Of a DNA stretch of 64,000 bases, positions 19,122-35,539 are shown in pieces (position 1 is the stretch's first letter; each line of letters opens with the position of its first letter). The DNA is from an uncultured Candidatus Rokubacteria bacterium (GTDB lineage: Bacteria; Methylomirabilota; Methylomirabilia; Rokubacteriales; CSP1-6), in the NCBI GenBank assembly GCA_963771355.1, contig CAVYTA010000006.1, positions 2,464,001-2,528,000 on the forward strand, written 5' to 3'. The position numbers and the translations under genes were made by a program. The notes under the pieces are model-generated. The model saw nothing but the letters and a program-made list of their open reading frames with translations, had not been told where the DNA came from and did not search any database.

Positions 19122-19327
19122 TAGCTTGAAACCTTAGGTGGCAAGACCCATAGTGAGATCTCACCCAATGATTTTACAGGACTCGCCGGGAAATGAACTG
19201 AGAAGGATGGGCCGGCCGGCGGCGGCGGCGGCGGGGCCACGATCGGGCCTCGACTCCGAGGCCCCATCCAGGCATGCTTATAGACAATCTCCTGACAGTT
19301 CACAGCTAGGCGACGGAGACCTCAGCG

Positions 19328-20185
19328 ATGCGCCAACCGCTACTCGTACTGCTCGGACGCATATGGCGGGAAGCCCCCCACGGGCTGGGCCCGGGTCTGT
19401 CCCTCGTGAGCCTCGCGTTGGTGGTCGTCGGGTGCGCGAGCCCCTCGCTGATGCCGGAGTCCCAGGCGACGGCCATCAAGAATCGCGAACGAGCTCTCGC
19501 GCCTCACGCCAGCGCCATTCACTCCGCCATTGCCCAATCCGGGAATGCGGGCGCCCTGGTCTTTCTCGACGCCGAGGATGGCCGTCTGGTCGTCCTGCCG
19601 GGCGACAGTCCGGCCGATGCCTGGACGCGTCAGACCGCACCGCCGGAGAGCGGGACCGGTCGCGTGTCGGCGCCGCCGGTGCTCACCTACGTACATCGCG
19701 CGGACATACCCAAGGCTCCCGAGACCGTCACCCGGAGCGTTCTCCAGCAAGAAGGGGCCCTGCGGGTGTCCGTGGCCGCTCTCCAGAGCGAGCTCAGCGA
19801 GGCGCACCGGCGCATCGAGGAGCGCTTGGGCCTCGTACAGCGCGAGCTCGCCGAGTCGATCGCAACGGCGAAGCGGGAGGCAGACACCTCGCTGGCCACC
19901 GCGCGCGCGGACCTGCAGAGGGCGTTGAGCTCGTTCTCCGAGGAGCTGGCGGCGGCCCGTAAGTTCATGCTGCAGACGGCCCAGCTCGGCTGGCTCAATC
20001 ACGAGCTGATTGTCGAGAACGCGAACGCGGTACGGAAGGTGGCGACGGCCAGCCAGGAGCTGACCGCGAGCTCGGCAAAGCTCGAAGAGACCATGCGCCT
20101 GCTCTCGGAGACGCTGACCGGGCAGCTCAAGCAGCTGGCGAGACGGCTCGACACCCTTCAGGGCAAGGTCAGTAGCCTCAAGTGA
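19328..20185 (+). CDS. Hypothetical lipoprotein with long C-terminal coiled coil
   Basis: 'LVVVG-C' lipobox-like sequence; heptad-rich C-terminus. Confidence 0.7.
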   Translation: MRQPLLVLLGRIWREAPHGLGPGLSLVSLALVVVGCASPSLMPESQATAIKNRERALAPHASAIHSAIAQSGNAGALVFLDAEDGRLVVLPGDSPADAWTRQTAPPESGTGRVSAPPVLTYVHRADIPKAPETVTRSVLQQEGALRVSVAALQSELSEAHRRIEERLGLVQRELAESIATAKREADTSLATARADLQRALSSFSEELAAARKFMLQTAQLGWLNHELIVENANAVRKVATASQELTASSAKLEETMRLLSETLTGQLKQLARRLDTLQGKVSSLK

Positions 20186-20841
20186 GGTCGGCCATGCACC
20201 ACCGCGACCAGGTGCGAGGACGTCGTCTCCCGCTGCTGGCCGGCCTTCTGCTCTCGCTGATCGCGGCCCCGGACGCGCACGCCGGAGAGTGGGAGACCAT
20301 GCGTGAGAACTACGACAACACGCTCCGGACTCATGCCAAGCGGATCGCCGAGATCGAGGCCAGGGAGCGCGGGGGTCCGGCGGACCAGGAGAAGCGCGCG
20401 GACAAGATCACGAGGGATCGGATCGCCGGAATCAGGGGCTCCCTGAAGGGCGGCGGGAAGGCCCGGAGCCTGGCCGACGCCGCGGGGAGGGCGTCCGGGG
20501 ACCCGAGATCATTGAGCGACGTGGACCAAGAGCAAGGCCAGTACCTCGAGGTCGTCAAGAACGAGTGGCGCGCGGAAGGGGCGGAACGGAGGACGCTCCG
20601 CGAGTCCCTCGCGGCCCTCCCGAAGAACCTCGAGCGCACCAATGCGAGCCTGGCGAGGACGATCGAGGTTGCCGAGGCCACCACCATGCACGTGCCGCAT
20701 TCCGGCGTGCTCGAGAGGGTCGCGGAGATCGAGGGCGAGGCGAAAGAGCGGGCGAAATGGGAGCACGACCGGGCCGCGCGCGAGCGGGAGCGCCAGCAGA
20801 GAGAGCGCGAAGCCGCTGAGCGCGAGCGGGGCGTGCGGTGA
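20182..20841 (+). CDS. Hypothetical secreted helical/coiled-coil protein
   Basis: Signal peptide ending 'AHA'; charged helical body; GTGA overlap with upstream gene. Confidence 0.65.
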   Translation: MRSAMHHRDQVRGRRLPLLAGLLLSLIAAPDAHAGEWETMRENYDNTLRTHAKRIAEIEARERGGPADQEKRADKITRDRIAGIRGSLKGGGKARSLADAAGRASGDPRSLSDVDQEQGQYLEVVKNEWRAEGAERRTLRESLAALPKNLERTNASLARTIEVAEATTMHVPHSGVLERVAEIEGEAKERAKWEHDRAARERERQQREREAAERERGVR

Positions 20842-20845
20842 AGAC

Positions 20846-22759
20846 TTAGAGGTCGAGCTGGCCGCCGACCACCCGCGCGTAGTAGCCCTGCTCGGCGAGG
20901 AGGTCTTCGGGGGCACCCATCTCGGTCAACCGGCCCCCGTCCACGACCAGGATCTTGTCGACCCGCCGGATGGTGGTGAGCCGGTGGGCGACCATCAACG
21001 TCGTGCGACCGCGCATCAGCGCGAAGAGGCTGGCCACGACCTGGGCTTCGCTCTCCACGTCGAGCGCGCTCGTCGGCTCGTCCATCAATAGGATCGGCGC
21101 GTCCTTCAGGAACGCCCGGGCCAGGTTGATCCGCTGCTTCTCTCCGACACTCAAGTGCGCGCCCCCATCCCCGATGACCGTCCGATAGTGCTGGGGTAGC
21201 TTCTGGATGAGCTCGTCGGCCCGGGCGGCGTGCGCGGCGGCCTCGATCTCCTCCATCGTCGCGTCGGGCTTCCCGTAGGAGATGTTCTCGGCCACGGTGG
21301 TGGGCAGGATGATCGGCTCCTGCAAGACCAGGGCGATCTGGGCCCGCAGGTCCTCCAGGCGAAGGTCGCGCAGGTCCACGCCTTCCAGGAGCACGGCACC
21401 GCGCGCGGGGTCGAAGAAGCGCGGCAGCAGGTTCAAGAGCGTCGTCTTGCCGGCGCCGCTCGGACCGATGATGGCCGCCGACGTGCCCGCCAGGAGCTTG
21501 AAGCTGACGTGGTGCAACGCCGGCCGCGAGCTCTCATACGCGAAGGAGACGTCGTCGTAGGCGACGTTGCCGTAGACCGGGAGCGGGGGCCGCGGCGGCC
21601 CGGCACGCCCGCCTCCGGCGGCGGCGAACATGTCGTCGGCCGAGGTGGGGAGCTCCGCCGGTCCGTAGAGGTCCCGGCCCTGGTAGACCCGGCGCGCCTC
21701 CGGGCGGTCCTTCACCTCCTCGGGCGTGTCCAGGATCTCGAACACCCGCCCGGTGCTCGCGCGGGCGCTCGACAGGGTGGCCCCGACCTGCGAGAGTTGA
21801 TGGAGCGGCTCGAAGAGCTGGGCGACGTAGGCAAGAAACACCAGCAGCTCCCCCACCGACAGGTTGGCGTCCAGCACCTGCTGAGCGCCCACCCAGGTCA
21901 CCCCGAGCGTGCACACGCTCAGGATCACCGAGATCGAGCCCCAGTAGAAGACCTCGAGCCCCTGCTGCGCCATCTTGTGCTGGCGCGCCTTTTCGGTGTG
22001 CGCCGTGAAGCGCTGCCGCTCGTGGTCCTCACGCGCATGGCTCTGAATCAGCGGCAGGGCGGTGATCCCCTGGTGGATCAGCGCGTAGACTTTGCCCTCC
22101 GCTTGCTGGGCGGCCGTGCCCCGGATCCGCATCGCCCGTCCGAAGACATTGATCGACAGCACCAGGATCGGTACCGCGACCAGGGCCACCGCGGTGAGGC
22201 GCAAGTTCAGCCGGGCCATCGCCACCGCCATGAACAGGAGCGTGCCGGTGGCGCTGAGGAAGATCAGCAACCCCTGCAGGAACAGGGTTTGAAAAGCGAC
22301 CGTGTCCGTCCCGGCGCGGAAGATGATGTCGCCCGCCTGGGTGCCGTGGTGATAGCGCAGCGAGAGGCGCTGGAGCCAGCCGAACACCTCATCGCGAACC
22401 CGCCGCAAACCCCGGAGGCCCACCCCGATCGAGAGGTACACGTGCCCGGCACAGGCGGCGGCGTGCGCCAGGTGAAGGGCCAGCGACGCCGCCACGATGG
22501 TGGTGAGCATGGCGGGCTGCCCCCAGGACTGCACCCCGTCCGGCAGCCACCCGGGGTACGGCTTGCTGCCGAGGATGTTGTCGACCAGGAGGGCCAGGGG
22601 CCAGGGCTTGAGCAGGTTGAGCCCGATGCTGAGGAGCAATAGACCCAGGGACAGGGAAATTCTTCCAGCATCAGGGCGGAAGTAACCCAGCGCCCGGAGC
22701 AACTGGCGAAAACGTCCAACAGCAGAGCTGATTTCGCGCGTCAAACCGTTGGGATCCAT
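20846..22759 (-). CDS. ABC exporter, fused permease/ATPase (MdlB/MsbA-like)
   Basis: 'LLKPWPL', Walker A 'GPSGAGKT', 'LSVGEKQR', 'MDEPTSALD', 'AHRL'. Confidence 0.93.
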   Translation of the reverse strand: MDPNGLTREISSAVGRFRQLLRALGYFRPDAGRISLSLGLLLLSIGLNLLKPWPLALLVDNILGSKPYPGWLPDGVQSWGQPAMLTTIVAASLALHLAHAAACAGHVYLSIGVGLRGLRRVRDEVFGWLQRLSLRYHHGTQAGDIIFRAGTDTVAFQTLFLQGLLIFLSATGTLLFMAVAMARLNLRLTAVALVAVPILVLSINVFGRAMRIRGTAAQQAEGKVYALIHQGITALPLIQSHAREDHERQRFTAHTEKARQHKMAQQGLEVFYWGSISVILSVCTLGVTWVGAQQVLDANLSVGELLVFLAYVAQLFEPLHQLSQVGATLSSARASTGRVFEILDTPEEVKDRPEARRVYQGRDLYGPAELPTSADDMFAAAGGGRAGPPRPPLPVYGNVAYDDVSFAYESSRPALHHVSFKLLAGTSAAIIGPSGAGKTTLLNLLPRFFDPARGAVLLEGVDLRDLRLEDLRAQIALVLQEPIILPTTVAENISYGKPDATMEEIEAAAHAARADELIQKLPQHYRTVIGDGGAHLSVGEKQRINLARAFLKDAPILLMDEPTSALDVESEAQVVASLFALMRGRTTLMVAHRLTTIRRVDKILVVDGGRLTEMGAPEDLLAEQGYYARVVGGQLDL

Positions 22760-23079
22760 GGAGGCAATTGACTCAAGGCAGCAAGCCACGTGCCACGCCG
22801 CTCGGGCGAATCCGGACCACCGACGAGGCCTTGAAACTTGCCGACTTCTTGGGGCCTGGTCATCGGTCGTCGCGGCGACGGCATCGGGTCACCATGTAAT
22901 TCCTACACAAGCGACCATGTAGGGCGGCCGATCTCGGGGTCCCTGCCCCGTGAGTGAGCACCGCGACCGGACAGCGGCAGCGCGAAGCCCTGGGGGTCCC
23001 CCCCGTTCGCTTCAGACAGGTGAGATCAGTTCTCGAGTCGGATTCAACGGATTTCATGAGCAACTTGGGCCGCTTTCCA

Positions 23080-23150
23080 CGCAAACTTCGGAGCGGTCAT
23101 GCTCGTTCCCATCTGCGCTCATGCTGGGCCGCTCCAGCCATTTCCTAGGT
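23080..23150 (-). repeat. Degenerate attC
   Basis: Minus strand ACCTAGG-AAATGG-CTGGAGCGG...CCGCTCC-GAA-GTTTGCG, overlapping the gene stop. Confidence 0.5.
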
Positions 23151-23471
23151 GGACTCACCCGTCGCACCGACGTCAGAGAAGGATGACACGATTTCGAAGG
23201 GGGCGTGGCCGTCCACATGATAGAGCTTTCCCCCGTCCTTCACGAAACCCGTGAGCAGTCGGCGCAGAAGGCTGGCCGCCAGGCACAATGCCTGAAGCGA
23301 GCTCGCACCGCGAACGTCGGGCAACTTGTCGTAGAGACCCGTGAGAACCACCGGGCAGGCCCATTCGTGAGGGTCGATTGCGTAGGGGCGTCCAATGCCG
23401 GCCCTGACGTCAAACCGATCTCCCTTTGGACGCGACGCAACGAGCTTCTCTTCGGCTATGAGTTTGGCCAT
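23145..23471 (-). CDS. Hypothetical protein (DUF6968-like)
   Basis: 'IGRPY...EWACPV...GASSLQALCLA'; ATG follows upstream stop. Confidence 0.65.
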   Translation of the reverse strand: MAKLIAEEKLVASRPKGDRFDVRAGIGRPYAIDPHEWACPVVLTGLYDKLPDVRGASSLQALCLAASLLRRLLTGFVKDGGKLYHVDGHAPFEIVSSFSDVGATGEST

Positions 23472-23478
23472 CTCTCGA

Positions 23479-24468
23479 CTATTGAACGGTGTAGTCCGCG
23501 CGCTGTAGCAGGGCCGGCGGAATCGTGAGGCCGAGCGCTCGGGCGGTCTTGAGATTGATCGCCAGCTCGAACTTGATCGGCGGCTCCACGGGAAGGTGTG
23601 CGGGGTTCGCGCCACTGAGGATTCGGTGGACGTAGGTGGCGCAACGACGATATAGATCGCGCCGGTCGGTGCCGTACGACATGAGGCCTCCGGCGTCCAC
23701 GAATTCCCTGAGTCCATAGATGGCCGGGAGCCGGCTCATTGCCGCGAAGTCGAGGATCCGCGTCCGGTACGTGAACGTGAAATAGTCTTCCACCGCGATG
23801 AGCGCGTCGATCTGGTCGAAGAGCGCCGTCTCGAACAGCTGTTCGAAAGGCTCGGATCTCTGCAGCTCGAGACGCGTGAGCTTTACTCCCATGGCCCGGG
23901 CTACCCTATCCGTGTCTCTCACGATCAGCGGAGCGGTGAGGTCGCCCGGATTCCAGAGGATGCCGACCCGCGATAGCGCGGGCACCGCCTCCTTAAGGAG
24001 CTGCAATCGCTTGCCGCCCAGCTCAGGCGGGGCCGTGATATACAGCCCGGTGACATTCCCTCCCGGCCGAGCCAGGCTGGCCACGATGCCCTCGAGAGCC
24101 GGGTCGCCACTCGACGCCATGACGATCGGTGTCGTTTGCGTGGCGTGCTTGGCGGCCAGCGTCGCCGGGGTTCCCCGCGTCACGATCACGTCGACCTTGA
24201 GCTGGACCAGCTCGGTCGCGAGGTCCGAGAACCGCTCCGGGCGGCCCTCCGCCGAACGGTACTCGAGCACGAAGGTCTGCCCCTCCACGTACCCGAGTTC
24301 GGCCAGCCCTTGGCGGAACGCGCTGAGGTTCGCCGCGTTCGACGCGACGCCCACGATCTCCAGCACCCCGATGCGGTGAACCTTCCCCGTTGGCTGCGCG
24401 GCGGGGGTGAGCGGCGCGGCCAGAATGAGTACGGCCACAACCAGGCTGAGTGCGGGTAGGCGGTTCAC
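23479..24468 (-). CDS. ABC transporter substrate-binding protein (ABC_sub_bind/PF04392-type)
   Basis: 'FRQGLAELGYVEG', 'SLARPGGNVTG', 'GGLMSYG', 'LPVEPPIKFELAINLKTA'. Confidence 0.92.
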   Translation of the reverse strand: MNRLPALSLVVAVLILAAPLTPAAQPTGKVHRIGVLEIVGVASNAANLSAFRQGLAELGYVEGQTFVLEYRSAEGRPERFSDLATELVQLKVDVIVTRGTPATLAAKHATQTTPIVMASSGDPALEGIVASLARPGGNVTGLYITAPPELGGKRLQLLKEAVPALSRVGILWNPGDLTAPLIVRDTDRVARAMGVKLTRLELQRSEPFEQLFETALFDQIDALIAVEDYFTFTYRTRILDFAAMSRLPAIYGLREFVDAGGLMSYGTDRRDLYRRCATYVHRILSGANPAHLPVEPPIKFELAINLKTARALGLTIPPALLQRADYTVQ

Positions 24469-24983
24469 GGGTCGGCCAGCATCTTCCGGATGCGCTCCAC
24501 CTCTGACGCGGGCATCCGCTTGAACAGCGGTCTCACCGTGTAGTTGCCAACCATCTTCCCGTTTCGCATGTAGACCCAGTCCGAGATGTCGCCCTCGGCA
24601 ATCTCGATCCGATCGCCAAATTTCACACTCCCCACGATATTGGGCTCATTGTCGATCGTGCCCAGTATCTTACCGTCGCGTCGGGCGATGCCCGTGGCCC
24701 AAAAATATTCCGTGCCCCTCTGGTCGGTCACCATGACTTTCAATGCGAAGCTACTATCTCCTTGCGCTGGCTTCTCGAAGACCTGCCAGAAGGCTGGAAG
24801 CGTGCTCCGTGCTTGTGCGATGGCGCCAAGCATCTCTGGATCGTCTGCCTCGATATTCACCATCTTGTTGTGCTCGCGCTCGGAGCAGGCGATCAGGGAT
24901 CCCGCCAGCACTCCCACCAAGAGGACGGAGATAGCCCTGCGACTCATGCGCTGCGGCCAAACGATGGAAGGGTCAGGCGTCAT
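24465..24983 (-). CDS. YegJ/DUF2314 family lipoprotein
   Basis: 'DDPEM..AI..AR.TL', 'GTIDNEP', 'ISDWVY..GKMVGNYT'; 'LIA-C' lipobox. Confidence 0.85.
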   Translation of the reverse strand: MTPDPSIVWPQRMSRRAISVLLVGVLAGSLIACSEREHNKMVNIEADDPEMLGAIAQARSTLPAFWQVFEKPAQGDSSFALKVMVTDQRGTEYFWATGIARRDGKILGTIDNEPNIVGSVKFGDRIEIAEGDISDWVYMRNGKMVGNYTVRPLFKRMPASEVERIRKMLADP

Positions 24984-25594
24984 TTCTCGGTAAGGGCAAG
25001 CTTGGCCCCCAACCCGGCGAAGGCGGCGGCAAAGCCATAGCGCAGCCAGCTTTGCACCCGGGCTGACTCCACCACGAGCCTCTGAAAGGCGTGCGCGACA
25101 AAGCCATAGACGACAAAGACTGTGAACGTCATGGCCATGAAGACTGCGCTCAGAAGAAGGAGCTGCCAGAGAGGTTGGCCGGCAGTGGGATCAACGAACT
25201 GGGGCAGAAAGGCCAAGAAGAAGATGGTCAGCTTGGGGTTCAGGATGTTGAGCAGGACGGCCTTGATGACCAGGCCGGCGGCAGAGGTCTTGGAAAGACC
25301 GCCATCCACCGCAAATGCGGACTGGTCGCGCCAGGTTGCATATGCCACGTAGAACAGGTAGACCACGCCGGCGTACTTGAGGACCTGGAAAGCCAGGGCA
25401 CTGGCATGCATGACCGCCGCCAGGCCCAGCACAGTAGCCATGAGATGAGGAACGATCCCTGCCGTGCACCCGATAGCGGCGTACACGCTGGCCTTTCGAC
25501 CTTGGGCCAGGCCCGTCGACACGGTGTAGATGACGCCCGTCCCAGGAATGAGCACGACCACGAGCGACGTGATGAGGAATTCGAGGCTGATCAT
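24980..25594 (-). CDS. LysE/RhtB family translocator
   Basis: 'IPGTGV', 'NILNPKLTIFFLAFLPQF'. Confidence 0.92.
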   Translation of the reverse strand: MISLEFLITSLVVVLIPGTGVIYTVSTGLAQGRKASVYAAIGCTAGIVPHLMATVLGLAAVMHASALAFQVLKYAGVVYLFYVAYATWRDQSAFAVDGGLSKTSAAGLVIKAVLLNILNPKLTIFFLAFLPQFVDPTAGQPLWQLLLLSAVFMAMTFTVFVVYGFVAHAFQRLVVESARVQSWLRYGFAAAFAGLGAKLALTEK

Positions 25595-25869
25595 GAGTTC
25601 CCCTGCTGATACGGCGCGGCGGAGCGGGGCGCATCAGACAGCTGCTCGTCCAGAGACTGGCGATACCGCAGGCAGCCCCGAAGAAACTCGGGCCATGTAG
25701 GGACCGTCGGCAGGGGGTCGGTCTTCTCGGGCAGGAGGCCCCAGAGCGCCGGGTGATGCCAGCAGAGCGCGTGTCCGGTGCTGTCACGATGCGCTCGGAT
25801 CCCGGCGCGCAACCGCCTCGCCTCGGCAACCAGTTGCTCGCGTGTCATCGCTTCGAGGTCCTCGTCCAC
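25591..25869 (-). CDS. Conserved hypothetical protein
   Basis: 'IRAHRDSTGHALCWHHP.LWGLLPE'; AAGGAG RBS before GTG. Confidence 0.75.
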   Translation of the reverse strand: MDEDLEAMTREQLVAEARRLRAGIRAHRDSTGHALCWHHPALWGLLPEKTDPLPTVPTWPEFLRGCLRYRQSLDEQLSDAPRSAAPYQQGNS

Positions 25870-25892: not shown

Positions 25893-25992
25893 AGCTAACG
25901 TTGAAGCTCGCCAGCGTTCCCGCGGCATTCAGCTCGGGCGGTCAGCCGCGCGGCGCTTTGGCCGCGTCGGCTGCACCGGCTTGTTGGACGCC
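25893..25992 (-). repeat. Chimeric/damaged attC
   Basis: Minus strand GTCCAAC-AAGCCGGTGCAGCCGAC...CGGCTGACCG joined to a non-matching right arm GCTTCAAC-GTTAGCT. Confidence 0.7.
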
Positions 25993-26357
25993 CGCCTCGT
26001 TGAACTCGCGCCGAGTTCCTTTTTTAGACGTTCGAAGTAGCGACGCTTGGCCCGTTCGACCACCTTCGGATCGTCGCGGTACCGACGCTTCGGCTTGTCG
26101 GCTCTCTTGGCTTCGACAACTTCAATCGACACTCTATCTCCTACACGGAGACGTTGGCTCCACCACTTCAAGTGCTCCTTGGATTCACTATCAAGCCCAC
26201 TCAGTTCAGCAGTGAGCTCCTCTTCTATGGTCTTGCCATCGCGCCCGTTCTCGGCCTTCCGCCGCACCCACGTGATGATGGCAGACAACACGCCGAAGGC
26301 GCGGACTCCGGCCGTGCATATGTACTCTCCATTGATCGACAGCTTGAAGGCAATCAT
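25929..26357 (-). CDS. Hypothetical cassette protein (ORF reads into its attC)
   Basis: GTTAGAC..GGAG-ATG start; the C-terminus 'SNKPVQPT' is translated attC. Confidence 0.75.
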   Translation of the reverse strand: MIAFKLSINGEYICTAGVRAFGVLSAIITWVRRKAENGRDGKTIEEELTAELSGLDSESKEHLKWWSQRLRVGDRVSIEVVEAKRADKPKRRYRDDPKVVERAKRRYFERLKKELGASSTRRASNKPVQPTRPKRRAADRPS

Positions 26358-26890
26358 CTCCGTACCGATCGGCGTCTAACCCCCTTTGCCGCCGCTGACG
26401 AGCGCCGTTTGTGACGACGCGATGGAACTTCTCTTCTCGGGGCATAGATCGTCGTGGCTATGGTGCCTCCGACATTGGCGACAGCACGAAGAAGTTTCGG
26501 ACTGAGAGAGGTCTCGCAAGGGCCTGCTGTCTTGCCGGGTCCCCGCGGGTACCAGCGGCCGGACCCCACCGGCCGTTCATACAACAGACTCACGAACTCC
26601 CCACCCTCATATCCGACGTTGAAAACACGTGACTCCGCGTGCCTCCACAGTCGACCGGCTCTGGGCGGAAGTGACTCGACCACCTTGAGCAGGGCCCAGA
26701 TCGTCTGTTCCGGCGTCAACGGTCTCACCGACTTTGCTTCGATCCTCGCAAGACACTTCCGCCGAACTTTGCCAACATGGAGGACGAGACTTCGGGGCTC
26801 CACGGCGGCCGCAAATGCGGCGAGATCCTCCCGCGACCACACCTCCAGGTCGACATTGATGAAGTGAGGCCCGCTGAAAGCGAGCCCCCG
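26354..26890 (-). pseudogene. Hypothetical cassette gene with no clear start, reading through an attC remnant
   Basis: Protein-like 'GPHFINVDLEVWSREDL..' begins right after the upstream stop, with no ATG or RBS. Confidence 0.5.
26371..26410 (-). repeat. attC right-arm remnant (R' GTTAGAC at 26374-26380)
   Basis: GTTAGACGCC matches cassette end GTTGGACGCC (25983-25992) at 9/10. Confidence 0.65.
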
Positions 26891-26891
26891 C

Positions 26892-27617
26892 TTAGATATA
26901 GAGGTCCTGAGCACTGTGCCACTCGTGTCCGAGGTTGCGCATGACAAGAGCGCAGTCGAACGCCACGCTTCCTCTCGGAAATCTCGCCTCGTCGGAGAAG
27001 TAAGTGGAATGAACTTCTTCCACTTGGAGAGGCTCCACGCTCCATCCCTGCGTCCGAAGCTCGATCCCGTCGAGCCGGCCCGCATCACTCGTGACGGAAT
27101 AGCCGACGGAGCCGGGCTCAAAGAAAGCAGACGCCTCCGCAAGGGACGAGAAACATGATGAGCTGGGAAGCCCGCCCCCGTCGAGCCTCCCGCGGAGCCT
27201 CACCGACACTTCGCGATCGTCGGACTGCATGCTGAGGTCGATGCCGTCCGAGGCCTCTCGGACGGAGAAACGGGCGCGGTGATGCTCTCCGGGGAAGAGC
27301 CGACCGCCGGCGAAGTGGTTCATGGCCGACCCTGTGTCCCGGCGCGGAATAAAGACCCCCTCCTTCTCGCTGTCCTCCGCCAGCCAACGCACAGCGACCC
27401 GGTGGGCGGCATTCTCACTTGAGAGGCCGAGGAGGGAGGGAACGAATCGGGGGCGGACAGACTCTAGCCGGATCAGACAGATCCCGGCGATGGAATGGCC
27501 CCGATGAAGCTTTGGGCGAAAGCGCGATGGAAGCTGCGTCTGCATGACGACTGGGTCGATCCTGAAATTCACGAGTATGCGTCGCCGAATCACGCCCTGG
27601 ATGACCGGGAGCCGCAT
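26892..27617 (-). CDS. DUF2071-like protein
   Basis: 'IRRRILVNFR.DP', 'GICLIRLE', 'SENAAHR', 'FDCALVMRN'. Confidence 0.8.
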   Translation of the reverse strand: MRLPVIQGVIRRRILVNFRIDPVVMQTQLPSRFRPKLHRGHSIAGICLIRLESVRPRFVPSLLGLSSENAAHRVAVRWLAEDSEKEGVFIPRRDTGSAMNHFAGGRLFPGEHHRARFSVREASDGIDLSMQSDDREVSVRLRGRLDGGGLPSSSCFSSLAEASAFFEPGSVGYSVTSDAGRLDGIELRTQGWSVEPLQVEEVHSTYFSDEARFPRGSVAFDCALVMRNLGHEWHSAQDLYI

Positions 27618-27641
27618 GTTCGCCTGTCCCCATTCTGTGGA

Positions 27642-28040
27642 CTAGCTTTTGGCTGTGGACTTGTTCAGGGCCACGGCGGCGCGAACGAGAGTCTTCAACG
27701 CCTTCTCGTCTATCTTTTCGCCCTCGTGGAAGTCGATGGCCCGCCTTGTGTTCCCGTCAAGACTGGAGTTGAAGAGGCCCGAAGGATCCTTCAGAGCCGC
27801 CCCTTTGGCGAAGGTCATCTTCACGACGGTCTTGTAAGTCTCGCCTGTGCAGATCAATCCGTCGTGCGACCACACCGGAACCCCTCTCCACTTCCACTCC
27901 TCGACGACCTCGGGATCGGCTTCCTTGACTAAGGTGCGGAGCCGGCTGAGCATCTCGCCCCGCCAGTCGCCTAGCTCCTTGATTCTCGCGTCGATCAGCT
28001 GAGAAGGAGACTTGCTGTTCTGCGACCCGCTCTTCTTCAT
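27642..28040 (-). CDS. DUF1801 (YdhG-like) protein
   Basis: 'DWRGEML', 'EEWKWRGVPVW', 'FNSSLDGNTRRAID'. Confidence 0.9.
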   Translation of the reverse strand: MKKSGSQNSKSPSQLIDARIKELGDWRGEMLSRLRTLVKEADPEVVEEWKWRGVPVWSHDGLICTGETYKTVVKMTFAKGAALKDPSGLFNSSLDGNTRRAIDFHEGEKIDEKALKTLVRAAVALNKSTAKS

Positions 28041-28130
28041 GCCCGTTTCTCTTCCTTACTTGCGAGGCTTTGATAAATGGGGGTCACCGCCGCCGTGCCG
28101 ATTTTACGCTCTTATGCGCCATGACCGCAG

Positions 28131-28640
28131 TCAGCCAGTTGACGCCGTCGGCATGAGCATGTTCAGAAAGTCGGAGAGATGGTGGGCCACTAGTCTCCCC
28201 GGGTGCGGCCCGATCTGGTGCTCCGCCGCAATGTTGTCGTGATAGACCTGATACACGGGCGGGTCTTCTTTCTCCAGAGGGATGAAATACGGATCGCCGA
28301 TGCCGTCACCATCAGCTGCGATGCAGACGAACCCGAGAGGGAGAATATCGCACCCCGGCGTGAGTTCGCTTGATTCAACGGCCATGTTGCCCGGGTCGGC
28401 CAGGATAATGTAGCTCCGTCCGTCGAAATCATCCTCGGGCGGATAGGCCTGCCAGAATAGCTCCGCACCGCAGAGCGAGTAGTTCTGGAGCAGAGCGCTC
28501 AGCCACGGAGGAAGGGTCAGTCCAAGGGAAGTTGCAAGTGCAGTGTACTGCTCCTCCGTTGCCATAAACGAGCCAGCGCCAGCAGAGCGAAGCCGTTCAC
28601 ACAACGCATTCGCGGCGGCGTGGAGCGCGGGGCTCATCAT
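28131..28640 (-). CDS. SMI1/KNR4-like protein
   Basis: 'LGLTLPPWL', 'IAADGDG.GDPY', 'VYQVYHD', 'VAHHLSDFL'. Confidence 0.6.
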   Translation of the reverse strand: MMSPALHAAANALCERLRSAGAGSFMATEEQYTALATSLGLTLPPWLSALLQNYSLCGAELFWQAYPPEDDFDGRSYIILADPGNMAVESSELTPGCDILPLGFVCIAADGDGIGDPYFIPLEKEDPPVYQVYHDNIAAEHQIGPHPGRLVAHHLSDFLNMLMPTASTG

Positions 28641-28650
28641 GGCGAGGTCC

Positions 28651-28695
28651 GGCTAATGCCCAAGCTCAGCCGTCGGCTGGAGCACCTTGTTAGCC
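28651..28695 (-). repeat. Shortened attC (45 bp) with mutated R' (ATTAGCC)
   Basis: Minus strand GGCTAAC-AAGGT-GCTCCAGCCG-A-CGGCTGAGC-TTGGGC-ATTAGCC; the TAA is the gene's stop. Confidence 0.8.
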
Positions 28696-29124
28696 GCTGC
28701 CATGTTTGCGTAACACCTCTGCCGACAACCGATCAAGAAGCTGCTCGTTTGCCGGCACTAAGATTCGCTCCATGCGGCGACCAACATCAGGATTCTCGAA
28801 GTCTTGATTCCAACCGACCAGAGTCCCACCATCTGCGGTTGGCTCTAGAGTTACTGTCAGGAGATACCGTGGCTGTGATACGTGGTGAATAACGATCCTC
28901 TTGGGCGGCTCAATCTCCGTAATGACAATTTCATTGGGATAGTTCTTCCCGTCCGGCCCGTGCATCGTGAACGACCATTTCCCGCCTGGCTTAAACTCAT
29001 AAGTCTTGAAGGTATTGGTGAAACCAGCCGGTCCCCACCAAACTGCTAGGCGAGCGTCGTCCTCGAACGCAGCAAAGACACTCGATGGCGGTGCGGCAAT
29101 CTTGCGTGACGCCTGGAAGGTCAT
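28690..29124 (-). CDS. SRPBCC/AHSA1 family protein (cassette)
   Basis: 'WWGPAGFTNT', 'MHGPDGKNYPN'; stop inside R''. Confidence 0.9.
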   Translation of the reverse strand: MTFQASRKIAAPPSSVFAAFEDDARLAVWWGPAGFTNTFKTYEFKPGGKWSFTMHGPDGKNYPNEIVITEIEPPKRIVIHHVSQPRYLLTVTLEPTADGGTLVGWNQDFENPDVGRRMERILVPANEQLLDRLSAEVLRKHGSG

Positions 29125-29164
29125 AGCATTTACGCTCCTGCAACCCGACATGTTGTTCCGCTGA

Positions 29165-29192
29165 AGCGGCAAACGGGCAGGCTGAGCGGCCA
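29165..29192 (-). repeat. attC right-arm remnant (L'-R')
   Basis: Minus strand GCCGCTCAGCCTGCCC-GTTTGCCGCT; 9/10 match to cassette end at 28689-28698. Confidence 0.65.
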
Positions 29193-29602
29193 CGACGGAC
29201 GCCAAGCAGCGGTGAAAAGTGCCCCACTCCCGTTGCCGTGTCCCAAAAGACGATGGGGACGCTGCCGCGAGCGAGGCTGGCGGCAAGCCGTCTCAGACTC
29301 GTTGCCGGCAGTATCGGGACTCCAAGCTCACGGGCCCGACGGTAAAGGCGACGTTCCAACGGGGTTGGCCTGGGATCTCGGTTCGAGTGGAATTGAACTG
29401 AGAGGCCGTGCTCGGCCAGGGCGGTTGCCAGTCCGATCGTGAACACCCCGTGGCGTCGTGTGTACCTGCACGCTTTGATCAGCCTCGCCGCCGACACCCT
29501 CTTCCCGAAGTGTCGGAGCACCGTCTACGCTGCCAGCAAGCCGCAATGGCCATCCGTCGCAAGGAGTTTCCTCGGCGCATCGGCGTAGTCGGGGAACTCC
29601 AT
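29175..29602 (-). pseudogene. Peptidase C39-like cassette gene with internal TAG and 3' truncation
   Basis: 'DGHCGLLAA*TVLRHFG...GHFSPL'; in-frame TAG at 29525-29527. Confidence 0.6.
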
Positions 29603-29613
29603 GTCAGCTATCC

Positions 29614-29679
29614 GCCGAACGCCAGCATCGGCCGTTTGCGGAGCGGAGCGGTGCAAATCGGCTGCATGCCGTGTTGGGT
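29614..29679 (-). repeat. attC (66 bp)
   Basis: Minus strand ACCCAAC-ACG-GCATGCAGCCG...CGGCCGATGC-TGGC-GTTCGGC. Confidence 0.85.
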
Positions 29680-29740
29680 GGCAGTGACGGTCATGAGGAG
29701 TTGAAACGCGATTTGTACTCCATGATGCCAAACGCCAACT

Positions 29741-30310
29741 TCAGCGCGTGATCCTCTTCAGATCGTGGCGCATGATCGGGCGAGATGGCGTACGGCGCGC
29801 AACGATCTTGAAGCCAGCGCGCGCGAACGCCGAGGCTGTGCCCGTGAAAACATTCGAGGTACTTTCCGGTCGCGCCGTGTCAACCGGATAAGCTTCGAGG
29901 GCGGGCGCCTTGGCGCGCTTGGCGGCTTTCACTGCCGCGGTGATCAAGGCCGACCGGACGCCCTGCTTGCGATAACCCCGCCGCACATAAAAGCACGAGA
30001 TAGACCAGACGGGCACTTCATCAATGCGCTCAAAATGTCGCGCGCGATTGAGCCAGCCCAACGCATCGCGGGGCGTGAGCTGGCACCAGCCCACGGCCAG
30101 TTCACCGTCAAAAGCTAGCAAGCCCGGGGGTGGACCACGCTTCACGATCTCCCGAATGGCCGTTCGGTTTTTTGCTCGCGGGCGCTTGTGGTAGGCGCTG
30201 CCGATCCTCCAATACATGCACCAGCAGCCATTACTGGCACCCCCCTTCCCGAACAAGTCTTCAAAAGCAGGCCAGAGATTGGGCGTGAGTGGGCGGATCG
30301 TAAGCTGCAT
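29741..30310 (-). CDS. GNAT family N-acetyltransferase (cassette)
   Basis: 'GCWCMYWR', 'VGWCQLTPR', 'SCFYVRRGYRKQGV', 'LEAYPVD'. Confidence 0.9.
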   Translation of the reverse strand: MQLTIRPLTPNLWPAFEDLFGKGGASNGCWCMYWRIGSAYHKRPRAKNRTAIREIVKRGPPPGLLAFDGELAVGWCQLTPRDALGWLNRARHFERIDEVPVWSISCFYVRRGYRKQGVRSALITAAVKAAKRAKAPALEAYPVDTARPESTSNVFTGTASAFARAGFKIVARRTPSRPIMRHDLKRITR

Positions 30311-30355
30311 ATCGTATTCCTATACCTTTGCTCGGTTGTCAATTTGCGGAGTGCC

Positions 30356-30419
30356 ACCCAACGTCGAGCTAACCGGCGCTGCGGCTGTTTGCAGCGTCCG
30401 GTTAAGCGCCCAGTTAGGC
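30356..30419 (-). repeat. attC (64 bp)
   Basis: Minus strand GCCTAAC...TTAACCGGACGCTGC..GCAGCGCCGGTTAG...GTTGGGT; the TAA is the gene's stop. Confidence 0.9.
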
Positions 30420-30776
30420 GCTCGCTCTTCCAATTAGCCAGCGACACGTTGGCACCAGTATGCCTATCCCGACAGCCTGGTAAACGGGGGTAAAAAGAAC
30501 CGCAATTCCGCCCTGTGGGTCGGGATGGAGAAAAATGACATAGGTGAGGAATAGCAGTCCGCCCACCGTGACAATCGCGACAACCACAACATAAGCGATC
30601 GCCGACGCGCGTTCCTTGGCGAAGAACGTTAGCCCCAACGCAAGGGCTGCATATGGAAGTACAAGCCACACTGTAAAGAATGCCGCTGCACCAAGGCTAT
30701 TGGGCTTCAATACATTTACGAACGCGAGGCTCACCAAAGCGGAGACCGCGAGTATCGCGTAACTGAGAGCCTTCAT
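30414..30776 (-). CDS. Hypothetical 4-TM membrane protein (cassette)
   Basis: Hydrophobic 120 aa; 'HPDPQGGIAVLFTP'; low GC. Confidence 0.8.
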   Translation of the reverse strand: MKALSYAILAVSALVSLAFVNVLKPNSLGAAAFFTVWLVLPYAALALGLTFFAKERASAIAYVVVVAIVTVGGLLFLTYVIFLHPDPQGGIAVLFTPVYQAVGIGILVPTCRWLIGRASA

Positions 30777-30799
30777 AACCTGCCGGCCATCCTATTCGC

Positions 30800-30869
30800 G
30801 CCTAGCGATTTGCGGCTCAGCGGCGAGGGCGGCGAAGCCGACCGAGTCCGCTGCAGCCGCGGGTTAGGC
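30800..30869 (-). repeat. attC (70 bp), R' mutated GTT to GCT
   Basis: Minus strand GCCTAAC-CCGCG-GCTGCAGCGGAC...CCGCTGAGCCGCAAATC-GCTAGGC. Confidence 0.9.
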
Positions 30870-30901
30870 GACTGAAGGCTAAGCTTCACGGAGCGCCGGG
30901 T

Positions 30902-31294
30902 TTACCGCCCCGCTCCAGCCGGCAACCATCGGGCGGCAGCATCGGCGCTATCGTCGGGCCGTGTATTGAAGGCTATTGCCGCACCTGGGGCAGCTTTATG
31001 AACAGCGTTGATGACGGCTTCGAATAGTGCAAGGCCCCGGGGCGGCAGCCGGACTCCGGCTCCGATGACAACACAATCATAGCTCTTAGTAGCTAATTGA
31101 CGCTCAACTGCCGGCCCAGCGGTTTCATTCGGCCGGATGTAGCCAACATCGGCCTCCCATCCGCGTTCAGCGAACTGCTTCAGCGCAACCGCAATGCCGG
31201 CGTGAATCTTCTCGACGGTCATACCTGGCGGCAAGGCAGGGTCGGAGAAATCCACAGTTTCCGGATCGTAGCCGACGAGCAGAATCCTCGTCAT
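30902..31294 (-). CDS. Conserved hypothetical protein (cassette)
   Basis: 'YDCVVIGAGVR', 'IAFNTRPDDS..AAARW'; GAGGGAGG RBS. Confidence 0.85.
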   Translation of the reverse strand: MTRILLVGYDPETVDFSDPALPPGMTVEKIHAGIAVALKQFAERGWEADVGYIRPNETAGPAVERQLATKSYDCVVIGAGVRLPPRGLALFEAVINAVHKAAPGAAIAFNTRPDDSADAAARWLPAGAGR

Positions 31295-31337
31295 GAGCCC
31301 TCCCTCGTTTTGCTGCTGTCTCACTCTAGCGCGGGTC

Positions 31338-31425
31338 GCCTAACGCTAGGTTTCAGGCGCGGCGGATAGCGGGAGCGAGGCACGAGTGGACGCTGTTCGC
31401 CGTCGCCTGCAAACCCTTGTTAGCC
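31338..31425 (-). repeat. attC (88 bp)
   Basis: Minus strand GGCTAAC-AAGG-GTTTGCAGGCGAC...CGCCTGAAACC-TAGC-GTTAGGC. Confidence 0.9.
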
Positions 31426-31517
31426 AGCATGTTGATGCCCAACTTACCCATCGACCATGAAACGCAAACGGCCTGGGGCTTCTGCGACAAACACACGACC
31501 AATGCTTCATCTGATAT

Positions 31518-32198
31518 TCAGTGGCTCCGCAGGCCACCGCCGGTGAGGTGCATGATCACGAACAGCAGGGCCAGGCCGATGGCGTGGATCCCAACCACGT
31601 AAACTCAGCGTGGGGCCCTGGTGGCGGATCCCAGACCCGGCCCCACGTCGGATCCGGGATGGGAGGGCAGGTCAGCCAGCGACACCTTACGCCGCTCGTG
31701 CTGCTTACGCCGCCCGTACGGGGTCATGCCCCACGGCTTGTATACCGCGAGCACCGTTGCCGCGAGCAACACCAGCAGGCCGCCCCCAGCGTGCACCACG
31801 AGGTGAATCCGCTGCGCGCGGAAGTCTGTAGCGGACAATGTGGTCTCTGCCGCTACGCCTGCCATGGCTGTTACTGCCTGCATGTGCCGCAGCAACACCA
31901 TGGTGGCACTCGTGATCAGAAGGAACTTCGCCAAGACCCACCAGTGCCGGAACAAGCCCCACTGAGTTCCCAGTGACTCGACAAGCCCGGCGAGCAGTGT
32001 AGCGAGGCTGAATGGGACGATGATGTACCAGCCGATGAACTCCATCGAGAGGTAGGCGGCACGCACCATCTGAGCACTGTGGCTGGTCAGACCGACGATG
32101 GATAGAGCGAGGTAGGCAACGACCGCGCCGAGCCAGCCGACCGACAAAATGATATGCGCGGTGAGCGCGAACTTGCGAAGACTTGGTGTCATGGTCAT
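31518..32198 (-). CDS. DUF2269-like membrane protein with internal TGA at 31605-31607
   Basis: 'RKFALTAH..SVGWLGA', 'WGLFRHWWV..K', 'YKPWGMT'; frame continues past TGA as 'VYVVGIHAIGLALLFVIMHLTGGGLRSH'. Confidence 0.8.
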
Positions 32199-32208
32199 GC
32201 CTTATGCG

Positions 32209-32295
32209 GGCTAACGCTGCCAGTGAGCGGCGCGGTCTCCGGCCGCTACATCGCCCCTCACCGTTCCCCGCGGCCGCTCGATTGGCTGGTTAGAG
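32209..32295 (-). repeat. attC (87 bp)
   Basis: Minus strand CTCTAAC-CAGCCAATCGAGCGGCCGCGG...CCGCGCCGCTCACTGGCAGC-GTTAGCC. Confidence 0.88.
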
Positions 32296-32313
32296 GTTGC
32301 GATGACGGAGGCG

Positions 32314-33303
32314 CTACTCAATGACATGGTCTGCTAGGGCCAGCAACGAGGGTGGGATCGCGAGGCCGAGCGTCTTTGCGGCCCGAAGGTTGATGACCAG
32401 CTCAAAGTGGATCGGTTGCTCCACGGGGAGTTCAGCGGGCTTGGCGCCCTTCAGGATCCTGTCAACGTAGCTGGCGGCCTGCCGAAACTGTTCCGTCAGC
32501 TTCGGCCCGTATGACAGGAGTCCCCCCGCCTCAACATTCTCACTGCGCTGGAATATGGTTGCGAGTCGGGCCTGCCGGGCCAACTCCGCAATTTGCCGGC
32601 GCTCACTTATGAACAGTGGATCGGGGAGGATCACGACGCCTGCCACGCCAGCACGGGCTATTGCTGCAAAGGCCGATCCCAATTCCTTCGGCTCTCTGAC
32701 CGCGACATGCTGGAGCTGTATCCGCAATGACTCGGCGGCGACCTGGGTATCTCGCCACATGAGCGCAGACCCAGGATTCGTTGTGTTTCGCAAGACGGCG
32801 AGCCGTGTCGCAGCGGGGCGGACCTCCTTGATTAGCTGCAGTAACTTGCCGCTGACATCTCGGGAGACATTGCTGACGCCGGTGACGTTCCCGGCAGGTC
32901 GCGAGAGGCTAGCCACCAGCCCACTCCCGACCGGATCGCCGACAGAGACCATAACGATCGGAATGGTGCGAGTCGCGCGCTTGGCGGCAAGCGTCGCCGG
33001 CGTGGTCCACGCGACGAGAACGTCCACTTTCGAGCGGACGAGATCGGTAGCCAGGCGGTCCAATTCGGGTTCAGCGCCCGCGCTCGATCTCAGCTCCAAG
33101 ACGAGATTCTGTCCCACGGAGTATCCGAGCTCCCGTAACCGCCCTCGCAATGGCTCGACGTGCTGCGCGGCCGCTGTCGCCGGGACCGGGAGGAGTACAC
33201 CGACCCGGTACTCCTGCGCGGCTCGCGGCGCATCGGCCAGGAGCGACGCGGCGAGAATCCCGGCAAGGGCGACGACGATCGTGACGATGGGTCTAACCGT
33301 CAT
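32314..33303 (-). CDS. ABC transporter substrate-binding protein (PF04392-type), cassette 2
   Basis: 'LRELGY', 'GDPVGSGLVASLSRPAGNVTG', 'GGLLSYG', 'LPVEQP..FELVINL'. Confidence 0.92.
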   Translation of the reverse strand: MTVRPIVTIVVALAGILAASLLADAPRAAQEYRVGVLLPVPATAAAQHVEPLRGRLRELGYSVGQNLVLELRSSAGAEPELDRLATDLVRSKVDVLVAWTTPATLAAKRATRTIPIVMVSVGDPVGSGLVASLSRPAGNVTGVSNVSRDVSGKLLQLIKEVRPAATRLAVLRNTTNPGSALMWRDTQVAAESLRIQLQHVAVREPKELGSAFAAIARAGVAGVVILPDPLFISERRQIAELARQARLATIFQRSENVEAGGLLSYGPKLTEQFRQAASYVDRILKGAKPAELPVEQPIHFELVINLRAAKTLGLAIPPSLLALADHVIE

Positions 33304-33348
33304 GACTCGCTTTGGTAGCACTCCAACCGGATGAGGCAATCCATGAAC

Positions 33349-33403
33349 CTCTAACGCACCATTCAGCGGCGGCGGAGCCGTCCGCTGCAATAGGCAGTTG
33401 TCC
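33349..33403 (-). repeat. attC (55 bp)
   Basis: Minus strand GGACAAC-TGCCT-ATTGCAGCGGAC...CCGCTGAAT-GGTGC-GTTAGAG. Confidence 0.85.
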
Positions 33404-33437
33404 GACCGCAGGCAACTGTACGCCCCCTCGTCCGTGA

Positions 33438-34412
33438 TCACTCGATCAGCCGATCAGCGCGCAGGAGCACCGCCGGCGGGAACGTGACGCCTTGAGCTTT
33501 TGCCGTCTTGAGATGAAGGACCAACTCGAAGTGCGTCGGCTGCTCAACGGGGAGCTCGGCTGGGTTTGCGCCTCTCAGGATCTTGTCGATGAAGGTGGCG
33601 CCGGAGCGGTACTGCTCGATCGTGCTGAAGGAGTACGACATCAGGCCGCCTGCGTCCGCAAATTCATTCTGCCCGTACACGGCAACCTGACGCTGGGCGT
33701 TCACCAATTCCACAATACGTCCGCGTTGGGAGACGAAGAACGCGGCTGAGAGGACATAGAGCACGTCTGGCCGCTCGGACTTCAGCACCTTGAAAGCGGC
33801 GATCAGATCCTCCGGTGATCGCGCCTCGATCATCCTCAGGTTCAGTGCGAGTGTCGCCGCCGCCTGCTTCAGAGTGGGAAGCATTCGTACTAGGGGCAGG
33901 TTCGTCGGGTCGTGCAGCAGCGCCACACGCGAGGCCGAGGGGAACACTTCTTTGAGGAGCTGCAATATCTTGATCTGAAACTCCTCCGCCTGATTGCTGA
34001 GCCCGGTCGCATTGGTCCCCGGCCGTCGCAACGCCTTGATGATCCCAATCCCTACCGGATCTGAGACGGCGACGAACACGATCGGGATCGTCGTCGTCGC
34101 CTTGGATGCCGCGAGGGTCGCTTGAGAGCCGGCCGCGAACAAGACATCGGGCCTGAGCGCGACCAGTTCCGCGGCCAGCGCGGACAACCGGTCGAACCGC
34201 CCCTCCGCGAACCGCCGCTCGACCACAAGGTTGTGTCCCTCGCGGTAGCCGAGCTCGGCGAGCGCCCTGAACAGGGCTCGTTGATTCGGCGCATTGACCG
34301 CCGGTGAAGCCGGGACTAGGTAGGCCAGCCGGTGGGGGCGCTGCTCTGCACTCGCCCATGCGGTCATTGCGAACGAGGCTGCGCCCGTCAGAATCTCCCT
34401 GCGCGTGGTCAT
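33438..34412 (-). CDS. ABC transporter substrate-binding protein (PF04392-type), cassette 1
   Basis: 'TRREIL' N-terminus; 'LAELGYREG', 'RPGTNATG', 'GGLMSYS', 'LPVEQPTHFEL'. Confidence 0.92.
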   Translation of the reverse strand: MTTRREILTGAASFAMTAWASAEQRPHRLAYLVPASPAVNAPNQRALFRALAELGYREGHNLVVERRFAEGRFDRLSALAAELVALRPDVLFAAGSQATLAASKATTTIPIVFVAVSDPVGIGIIKALRRPGTNATGLSNQAEEFQIKILQLLKEVFPSASRVALLHDPTNLPLVRMLPTLKQAAATLALNLRMIEARSPEDLIAAFKVLKSERPDVLYVLSAAFFVSQRGRIVELVNAQRQVAVYGQNEFADAGGLMSYSFSTIEQYRSGATFIDKILRGANPAELPVEQPTHFELVLHLKTAKAQGVTFPPAVLLRADRLIE

Positions 34413-34444
34413 ACGACGAGACAAATCTTCATCGGTCGTGGTTC

Positions 34445-34477
34445 GGACAACTAGAATTATCTAGTTCTGTGTAGCGC
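34445..34477 (-). other. Candidate attI recombination site
   Basis: The first cassette starts at GTTGTCC (34451-34445), preceded by AT-rich GAACTAGATAATTCTA rather than an attC hairpin. Confidence 0.65.
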
Positions 34478-34669
34478 TGGGGACGGTGCGGGCGGGGCCC
34501 AGATCGCATGGAGGGGTGAGTTCCCTGCCGGTCGAGGATGGCTGCTCGGGCGCGCAGTTGAGAAGGTGCGGGCGCCGCGGGGCGCCGGGATAGGCAGACC
34601 GGTGTAGCGCGGTGTACGCCGCGGGCTCGGCGGCGGGCGGGAGGGCGGCGCACCGCGGCCGCCACGGGC

Positions 34670-35539
34670 TTAGATCATCTCCGCCTGGGCGCTCATGGCG
34701 ACTGTGCCCGCGGGCGTGACGGCCCAGAGCTCGCAGCCGCGGCCGTCGGCGGTGGGGCGGCCGCGCAGCTCGAAGGGGGCGCCGAGGAAGAGCGGCGCGC
34801 GCGCCTGGGTGGTGTAGGAGCGGAAGGGGCGGCCGGGGTTCGCGTCGCGGGCGAAGTCGATGAGGAGCGTAGAGGTCAGGGGGCCGTGGACCACCAGCTC
34901 CGGGTAACCCTCCACGTCCATCGCCCAGGCGCGGTCGTAGTGGATGCGATGGCTGTTGAACGTCAGCGCAGAGAACCGGAACAGGAGCACGGGGTCGGGC
35001 TCCACGCGGCGACGCCAGGGGACGTCGGTCGGCGCCTCCTCGCGGCGCGGTGCCTGGTTCCGGTCGCCGGCCTTGACCTCCTCGCGGAACACCGTGCGGC
35101 GCTCTTCCTCGATGGCGAGGCCCTCGGGCCCGAAGATGCGGTTGACCACGGTGGCGAAGACGAGGGGGCCGGTGCCGCCCTCCTTCATCGAGATGTCGCG
35201 GAGCTCGGACTCGCGCCGGAGCTGATCGCCCACGCGAAGGGGCCGCTGGAAGAGGAAGCGCTCGCCGGCGAACATGCGGCGCGGGAGCGGCATGGGCGGC
35301 ACCACGCCGGCGTCGCGGGGGCTGCCGTCCGGATGTAGCGCGTCGGGCCCGAAGCGCGGCAGGAAGTACAGGATGTGCCAGCCTGGCGGCAGCGCGTCGC
35401 CCGACGCGAGCTCGGGCCCGGACCGCCCGAAGGTCAGGCGCAGAAGGTTCGCCGGCGCGGCGGTGACGACGTCGCTGGAGACGACGCGCCGTCCGATATG
35501 GGCCTTCAGGCTATCGAGGTCGAGAGCGATCTTGGCCAT
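34670..35539 (-). CDS. MaoC/FAS1-like double hot-dog dehydratase (mesaconyl-C4-CoA hydratase-like)
   Basis: 'LPPGWH', 'PLPRRMFAG', 'LFRFSALTFNSHRIHYD', 'LVVHGPL'. Confidence 0.9.
   Translation of the reverse strand: MAKIALDLDSLKAHIGRRVVSSDVVTAAPANLLRLTFGRSGPELASGDALPPGWHILYFLPRFGPDALHPDGSPRDAGVVPPMPLPRRMFAGERFLFQRPLRVGDQLRRESELRDISMKEGGTGPLVFATVVNRIFGPEGLAIEEERRTVFREEVKAGDRNQAPRREEAPTDVPWRRRVEPDPVLLFRFSALTFNSHRIHYDRAWAMDVEGYPELVVHGPLTSTLLIDFARDANPGRPFRSYTTQARAPLFLGAPFELRGRPTADGRGCELWAVTPAGTVAMSAQAEMI

Follow-up and report, generated by a model that had tools for sequence, protein, structure and literature searches.

An attI-headed cassette array without an adjacent integrase gene

The window analyzed here is a 64,000-nucleotide stretch of an uncultured Candidatus Rokubacteria genome (G000; 5.5 Mb, 70% GC, 8 contigs, 99.8% complete). 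Between approximately 23000 and 34000 of the window, GC content is lowered to 0.58-0.64. We found a cassette array here, all features of which, together with the gene flanking its attI, lie on the minus strand. The attI core occupies 34445..34475, with the crossover expected between 34451 and 34450, and is preceded by a leader (34452..34669) that corresponds to the spacer between intI and attI, retained after the loss of intI. Next to it lies a dehydratase-like gene (34670..35539), which marks the orthologous attI locus in two relatives, G002 and G003. Cassette 1 extends from 34450 to 33355 and carries a gene for a protein of 324 aa (33438-34412), with a twin-arginine-like leader as judged by eye, followed by attC1 (33349-33403). 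Cassette 2 extends from 33354 to 32215, with a gene for 329 aa (32314-33303), whose leader, also judged by eye, is Sec-like and has no lipobox, and attC2 (32209-32295). Both proteins belong to PF04392 (profile E-values of 1e-42 and 7e-47) and share approximately 40% identity; PF04392 scores in the window were 147-160 bits against a gathering cut-off of 25.9.

Cassettes 3-6 (29614..32214) contain three ORFs without Pfam match and one GNAT gene, and their attC sites lie at 31338-31425, 30800-30869, 30356-30419 and 29614-29679. An older part of the array (25893..29613; AHSA1, SMI1/KNR4, DUF1801 and DUF2071) has degenerate attC sites at 28651-28695 and near 25893-25989. It is followed by a tail without attC (23145..25869), comprising a 92-aa ORF, LysE, DUF2314, a third PF04392 gene and then DUF6968, in which the first four are joined by overlapping stop and start codons; families typical of cassettes are packed here by stop/start overlap with no attC between them. 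The third PF04392 gene (23479-24468; E-value 7e-45) overlaps the DUF2314 stop with its start codon and has no attC on either side, and its closest relative (78% identity) lies about 6.5 kb beyond the last attC of a G002 array. The initial annotation had placed this paralog deeper in the array, which holds for its location in the tail, but it is not a cassette at present. Pfam annotation revealed no permease or ATPase gene inside the array, as had been stated for the cassette genes. Two fused ABC half-transporter genes, one of them SbmA/BacA-like, are located near the array tail (17304-22789). No Rfam match was found in the window, and the segment between 15340 and attI is missing from G002.

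The attC sites of cassettes 1 and 2 were recognized by a two-arm scanner, by a covariance model and by matching cassette ends; they show R''/L''/L'/R' boxes, extrahelical bases and a hairpin on the bottom strand. The scanner, which was trained on 11 attC sites that do not follow PF04392 genes and calibrated on the reversed genome, gave 37.5 for each of the two sites against a maximum of 29.1 in the reversed-genome null, and 7 sites in the window array scored at least 30. The covariance model (R2), built from 29 sites, returned E-values of 2e-6 for attC1 and 6.5e-7 for attC2; in its 29-row training alignment 91.6% of the cells pair, with 82 two-sided changes compared with 30 in shuffles. Folding alone gave a weak signal (z of -1.1 for attC1, for which the folded stretch was 11 nt too long, and -1.3 for attC2). 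For both cassettes, the upstream site's R' core and the R'' of the attC that belongs to the cassette are reverse complements over 7/7 positions, and such agreement was also observed for cassettes 3, 4 and 6 (7/7) and cassette 5 (6/7). The two attI-proximal PF04392 genes are therefore confirmed as real integron cassettes with exact ends behind a real attI, in agreement with the earlier proposal.

The attI core occurs four times in G000 and six times in four relatives (150 relatives searched), and a reversed control pattern had no match. The copies in G000 (C4:240800, C6:1214301, approximately 34449 of the window, and C8:125033) lie at unrelated loci, and the one at C4:240800 is preceded by an 18-codon remnant of the 3' end of intI. 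In G002, which belongs to the same genus, the core lies downstream of a co-oriented intI; the identity of attI is verified by homology to this site, which also rules out that the palindrome is a dif-like site. A profile search with TIGR02249 found no integron integrase over the cut-off in G000, whose main integrase-profile matches were read as XerC/XerD-like proteins and one phage-type recombinase. At the window locus attI is thus present, and the adjacent intI of a complete integron is missing. Among 101 genomes of the order, 37 have an intI over the cut-off; at 37 intI loci, attC sites were found downstream on the same strand in 24 cases and in divergent orientation in none.

The leader could be aligned at eight loci: the window, the three other G000 loci and four in G002 and G003, including one behind intI. 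Its repeated boxes may represent a cassette promoter; a scan for sigma-70 promoters and terminators over 33200-34800 found none. Heads consisting of attI and leader number four in G000, which has no intI, and three in G002, one of them with intI. A further attI-like core in G002 (L031:13640) lies within a large array, directly after a PF04392 gene.

Cassette turnover and enrichment of PF04392 genes

The same dehydratase gene adjoins attI in the sister species G000, G002 and G003, and the first cassettes at this orthologous attI differ among the three. In G002 it is followed by a different PF04392 cassette (40% identical), with synteny returning about 4.7 kb further on, and in G003 by stretches 93-94% identical to cassettes of the C4 array of G000. 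In addition, one cassette is common to G002 and G024, which belong to different genera. A contig from soil run X9 (depth 9, at least 255 bases on each side of the joint) connects 30811 to 34462 and omits cassettes 1-4, and other X9 contigs cover the PF04392 cassettes at a depth of about 5. The joint lies 5-11 bases off the expected crossovers (30806 and 34451), and identity on the attI side amounts to no more than about 90%; this is consistent with recombination between att sites but is not proof of it.

G000 encodes 34 full-length PF04392 genes, five of which end within 150 bp of an attC, compared with 15 of the approximately 4,960 other genes preceding an attC (odds ratio 57, p = 1.5e-7; the gene total of about 4,996 comes from a rough gene caller). 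The family makes up 0.7% of the genes in this genome, whereas it accounts for 5 of the 20 attC-bounded genes. Nineteen of the 20 attC sites scoring at least 30 lie within four arrays, and the arrays outside the window hold three further PF04392 cassettes. Outside the four arrays, a lone attC (C5:1000227-1000280) lies beside PF04392 fragments near a contig end.

A similar picture was obtained for the order, where attC sites are present in 56 of 61 genomes. At 30 loci, selected in 30 genomes solely for their attC score, a PF04392 gene precedes 6 of the 57 attC sites that have at least 300 bp of upstream sequence, and 8 of the 30 loci hold a PF04392 gene; related genomes in this set are not independent. 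Among the 150 attC candidates scored in each of four well-assembled relatives, PF04392 genes stand directly before attC for 4 of 30 family matches in G002 (plus a frameshifted one), 2 of 35 in G006, 4 of 53 in G034 and none of 20 in G036. Overall, this arrangement was seen in 19 genomes of the order, often with two or three such cassettes in succession. A GTDB junction scan listed at least 120 loci, most of them chance matches, of which 31 had an attC and 5 a PF04392 gene; among the loci listed, PF04392 cassettes were found in three genomes of Betaproteobacteria, of which one has a weak attC and one is frameshifted, and two Rokubacteria records were left out of the 19-genome count. With an approximately 57-fold enrichment in G000 and 6/57 order-wide, the cassettes of the window are not isolated captures, the outcome that the initial annotation had named as fatal to its idea.

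In the same scan, many records of Xanthobacteraceae and other Alphaproteobacteria repeatedly matched the junction pattern over 41 bases, although attC and PF04392 were both absent; the matching stretch is probably conserved coding sequence.

These counts bear on the possibility that the cassette genes are passive passengers, that is, that an abundant, compact and recombinogenic family was copied into cassettes without any selection for sensing. Several cassette copies are indeed frameshifted or fragments, cassette copies do not cluster on the family tree, and other copies sit within unrelated operons, for example after Top6B. A preference for the first position, hinted at by the integrase-less attI sites (2/4 in G000; 2/3 in G002, including the intI-linked one), was dismissed on the basis of 3/28 at intact integrons. 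On the other hand, the majority of cassette copies are intact and keep a conserved scaffold, consecutive PF04392 cassettes recur, and the family is overrepresented before attC both in G000 and across the order, so that we consider mere passenger status improbable.

With more than one attC site and no intI nearby, the window array is an attI-headed CALIN, the class of integrase-less cassette arrays outlined by Cury et al. (2016; PMC4889954). It resembles the arrays described in that source in these respects as well as in its low GC content and its small genes of typical cassette families. It differs from them in that attI and its leader are retained, with four such attI sites in a genome that has no intI, that sister species differ in the cassettes found at the orthologous attI, and that a single family contributes a quarter of the attC-bounded genes.

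Protein fold, transport and dCache receptors

The AF2 model of the cassette 1 protein (pLDDT 91) has a class I binding-protein fold and matches 3LKV (VC_1101), 3LFT (SP1069) and 6HNI (CD0873) with TM scores of 0.82-0.86, the highest being for 3LKV (0.86); the three proteins bind Phe, Trp and Tyr (PMC10443332, PMC6816091). In an alignment of 92 proteins, the scaffold is conserved and the loops of the cleft are hypervariable. The columns that map to Ala246 and Tyr262, the specificity residues of VC_1101 (PMC6816091), rank 2nd and 17th of 301 in variability, and entropy was 2.99 bits in the pocket and 1.78 bits elsewhere, a descriptive comparison only, with positions picked post hoc. TrpX proteins linked to transporters share the conserved surface, which taken alone is therefore no indication of a receptor. 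In comparison with VC_1101, SP1069 and CD0873 as presented in these sources, the two-lobed class I fold and the conserved scaffold motifs are alike, whereas no cognate permease or ATPase genes were found here, the pocket columns are hypervariable and there are tens of copies per genome.

This fold, shared with transport proteins, raises the possibility that cassette proteins serve as transport modules which feed diverse solutes in trans to one of the genome's other ABC permeases, LivHM-type or similar. Such permeases could be borrowed, as G000 has 71 matches to PF02653, all of other permease types, and the canonical operon does exist nearby in phylogeny: the single query used to search for a cognate permease, a canonical TrpY-type permease from a Salinivibrio operon, matched in 5 of 14 genomes of a sister family, where that operon is present. 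However, it had no match in G000, in any of 46 genomes of the same family or in 5 further cassette-bearing genomes, some of them small and probably incomplete. No importer permease was found among the 50 of 86 neighboring ORFs scanned around 25 non-array copies, and the proteins scored 107-146 bits with the TrpX equivalog NF041285, far below its cut-off of 390. A role in transport is thus unlikely.

The neighbor scan revealed one convergent SbmA-type ABC gene and three PF04392 copies that abut histidine kinase genes, one of which in G000 is coupled to a dCache_1-HAMP-GAF kinase. This receptor subfamily is present in 52 of 61 genomes with one to four matches each, and a PF04392 gene lies directly upstream of the receptor at all 14 of the 14 best loci. 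At the next 16 loci, which represent a second receptor type and several of which are cut by contig ends, PF04392 neighbors were found in 2 cases. G000 has receptors at C6:310196 and C6:1255499. For the second of them (C6:1255499), the 14 kb of sequence examined contain no PF04392 gene, and genes for a response regulator and a REC-cyclase come after it; the model of its periplasmic portion has a dCache fold (Z about 20, rmsd 2.5-3.0). Beyond the order, a PF04392 gene overlaps a dCache-HAMP-cyclase gene in Rhizobium, with 33% identity of the N-terminal sensor region of the cyclase to the receptor (E-value 7e-54), and the same pair was observed in Diaphorobacter and in a Burkholderiales genome that also carries a PF04392 cassette.

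The coupling was seen for the PF04392 family rather than for the cassette copies themselves. Receptor-coupled copies of the order form a clade of their own (11 rows, support 98), apart from the clade with nearly all cassette copies, and only the coupled genes of Rhizobium and Burkholderiales, the latter on a long branch, fall within the cassette-rich clade. Moreover, adjacency of genes for a binding protein and a kinase need not mean function, and adjacent pairs with no detectable interaction have been described (PMC11113362). The initial annotation had suggested a shared transporter or sensor; because no cognate permease was found with the single query and a dCache family is gene-coupled to PF04392 in three lineages, the evidence favors the sensor.

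Taken together, our preferred reading, to which we assign a probability of roughly 60%, is that the cassette PF04392 proteins act as swappable sensing subunits of shared dCache-HAMP receptors and not in transport. The array would have been loaded by an integrase that is encoded elsewhere or has since been lost, and expression of the cassettes would be driven by the attI leader. The products, which belong to an expanded clade of PF04392 and are predicted to be class I binding proteins of the periplasm, would take different ligands and dock on the same one or two dCache-HAMP receptors, in G000 a GAF histidine kinase with response-regulator and cyclase genes after it. A more far-reaching version can be offered only tentatively: in soil Rokubacteria, tens of proteins with hypervariable pockets may compete for one or two conserved dCache receptors with a kinase-cyclase relay, and several attI arrays lacking intI may serve as slots for expression into which new sensor cassettes, exchanged among genera and phyla, are loaded in trans, so that integrons feed a reprogrammable chemical-sensing system.

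Binding proteins that stimulate dCache-like receptors are known from LuxP/LuxQ, HptA/HptS, ChvE/VirA and NspS/MbaA (PMC8050422), and the arrangement at the coupled loci of the PF04392 family is similar in that the gene for a predicted periplasmic binding protein lies beside that for a dCache-HAMP kinase or cyclase. It differs from those described in that review by having tens of putative binding proteins per one to four receptors, part of them on cassettes; PF04392 does not appear in the main text of the review. YfiR, which is reported to be structurally similar to 3LFT and 3LKV and regulates a membrane cyclase via its periplasmic domain (PMC4655355), consists of one small domain and acts as a dedicated repressor, unlike the many-copy, two-lobed putative ligand binders of PF04392. 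Enrichment of signal peptides among cassettes (PMC10661359) and rhizosphere cassettes assigned to 'transport and metabolism' (PMC11089894) have been described. The available portions of the literature on integrons in connection with Rokubacteria, PF04392, COG2984 or Methylomirabilota yielded no PF04392 cassettes and no pairing with dCache receptors; the initial annotation likewise knew of no such report. The main texts of three cassette surveys do not contain 'ABC', although PF04392 may occur in their supplementary Pfam lists.

If the sensing interpretation is true, one sensory family would constitute about one tenth of the sampled cassettes, and integrons would tune perception in an abundant uncultured soil lineage through a many-to-one design of binding proteins and receptor. 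To our knowledge, no function is known for the majority of integron cassettes, and those with a known function mostly carry genes for resistance or defence. Our results also offer a testable purpose for tens of orphan genes annotated as 'ABC transporter substrate-binding protein' in Rokubacteria and rhizobia, name a candidate receptor, and point to a natural library of putative ligand-binding modules built on one scaffold.

Cassette, solitary and tandem copies in the family

PF04392 is a family that we take to be highly expanded as orphans in some soil bacteria, including Rokubacteria, and the initial annotation had proposed integron capture and shuffling as the driver. The shuffling part of this proposal is supported by the enrichment, the turnover at orthologous attI and the hypervariable cleft. 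As for the expansion itself, it is very unlikely that integrons made most of it and that solitary and tandem copies are former cassettes which lost their attC: the third paralog and its G002 relative do lie in or past array tails with no attC, and several cassette copies pair, with strong support, with solitary or tandem copies as their sisters, but 29 of 34 copies in G000 have no attC, G036 has 20 matches with none before an attC, no attC match was obtained on a Bradyrhizobium plasmid that carries 12 matches to the family, and 13 of the 34 copies fall into a tandem class that has its own junction. Thus, integrons are one trafficking route for a minority of the family and not the main source of its size, and the idea of a swappable library survives in this weaker form.

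The phylogenetic comparison of cassette and non-cassette copies revealed no separate cassette lineage. On two quick trees, one with 90 rows and one with 73, cassette copies were dispersed, and a single clade for the five cassette copies of G000 was rejected in a 34-row AU test (p-AU 9e-11). PF04392 genes move between cassette, solitary and tandem pools, and the trees are too poorly rooted to give a direction.

The tandem copies are a separate class, larger than the cassette class. Two to five PF04392 genes are arranged head to tail with a conserved 22-base stop/start junction, which was found at 14 sites in G000. Such arrays lie at C7:714530-717455, C7:777162-779137 and C8:134-2100 in G000, and in relatives at L045-L048 of G034, L052-L054 of G006, and L051, L055 and L056 of G036. 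Solitary copies retain the junction as well, flanked on one side or on both by what is left of a neighbor that has been lost. Copies thus seem to be gained and lost by a second route, independent of integrons.

Four PF04392 genes or tandem arrays in G000 (C8:2100-2285, C7:712900, C7:717460 and C6:989120) are preceded by one and the same short ORF end (about 60 aa) with a Cys-rich start. Finally, 60 longer PF04392 forms were found among the best 7,994 candidates scored, most of them consisting of two fused PF04392 units. None of these 60 contains a permease or histidine kinase domain, and five carry a Ser/Thr kinase domain. The Ser/Thr kinase-PF04392 fusions P0047 and P0056-P0059, which are 750-790 aa in length, come from metagenomes.
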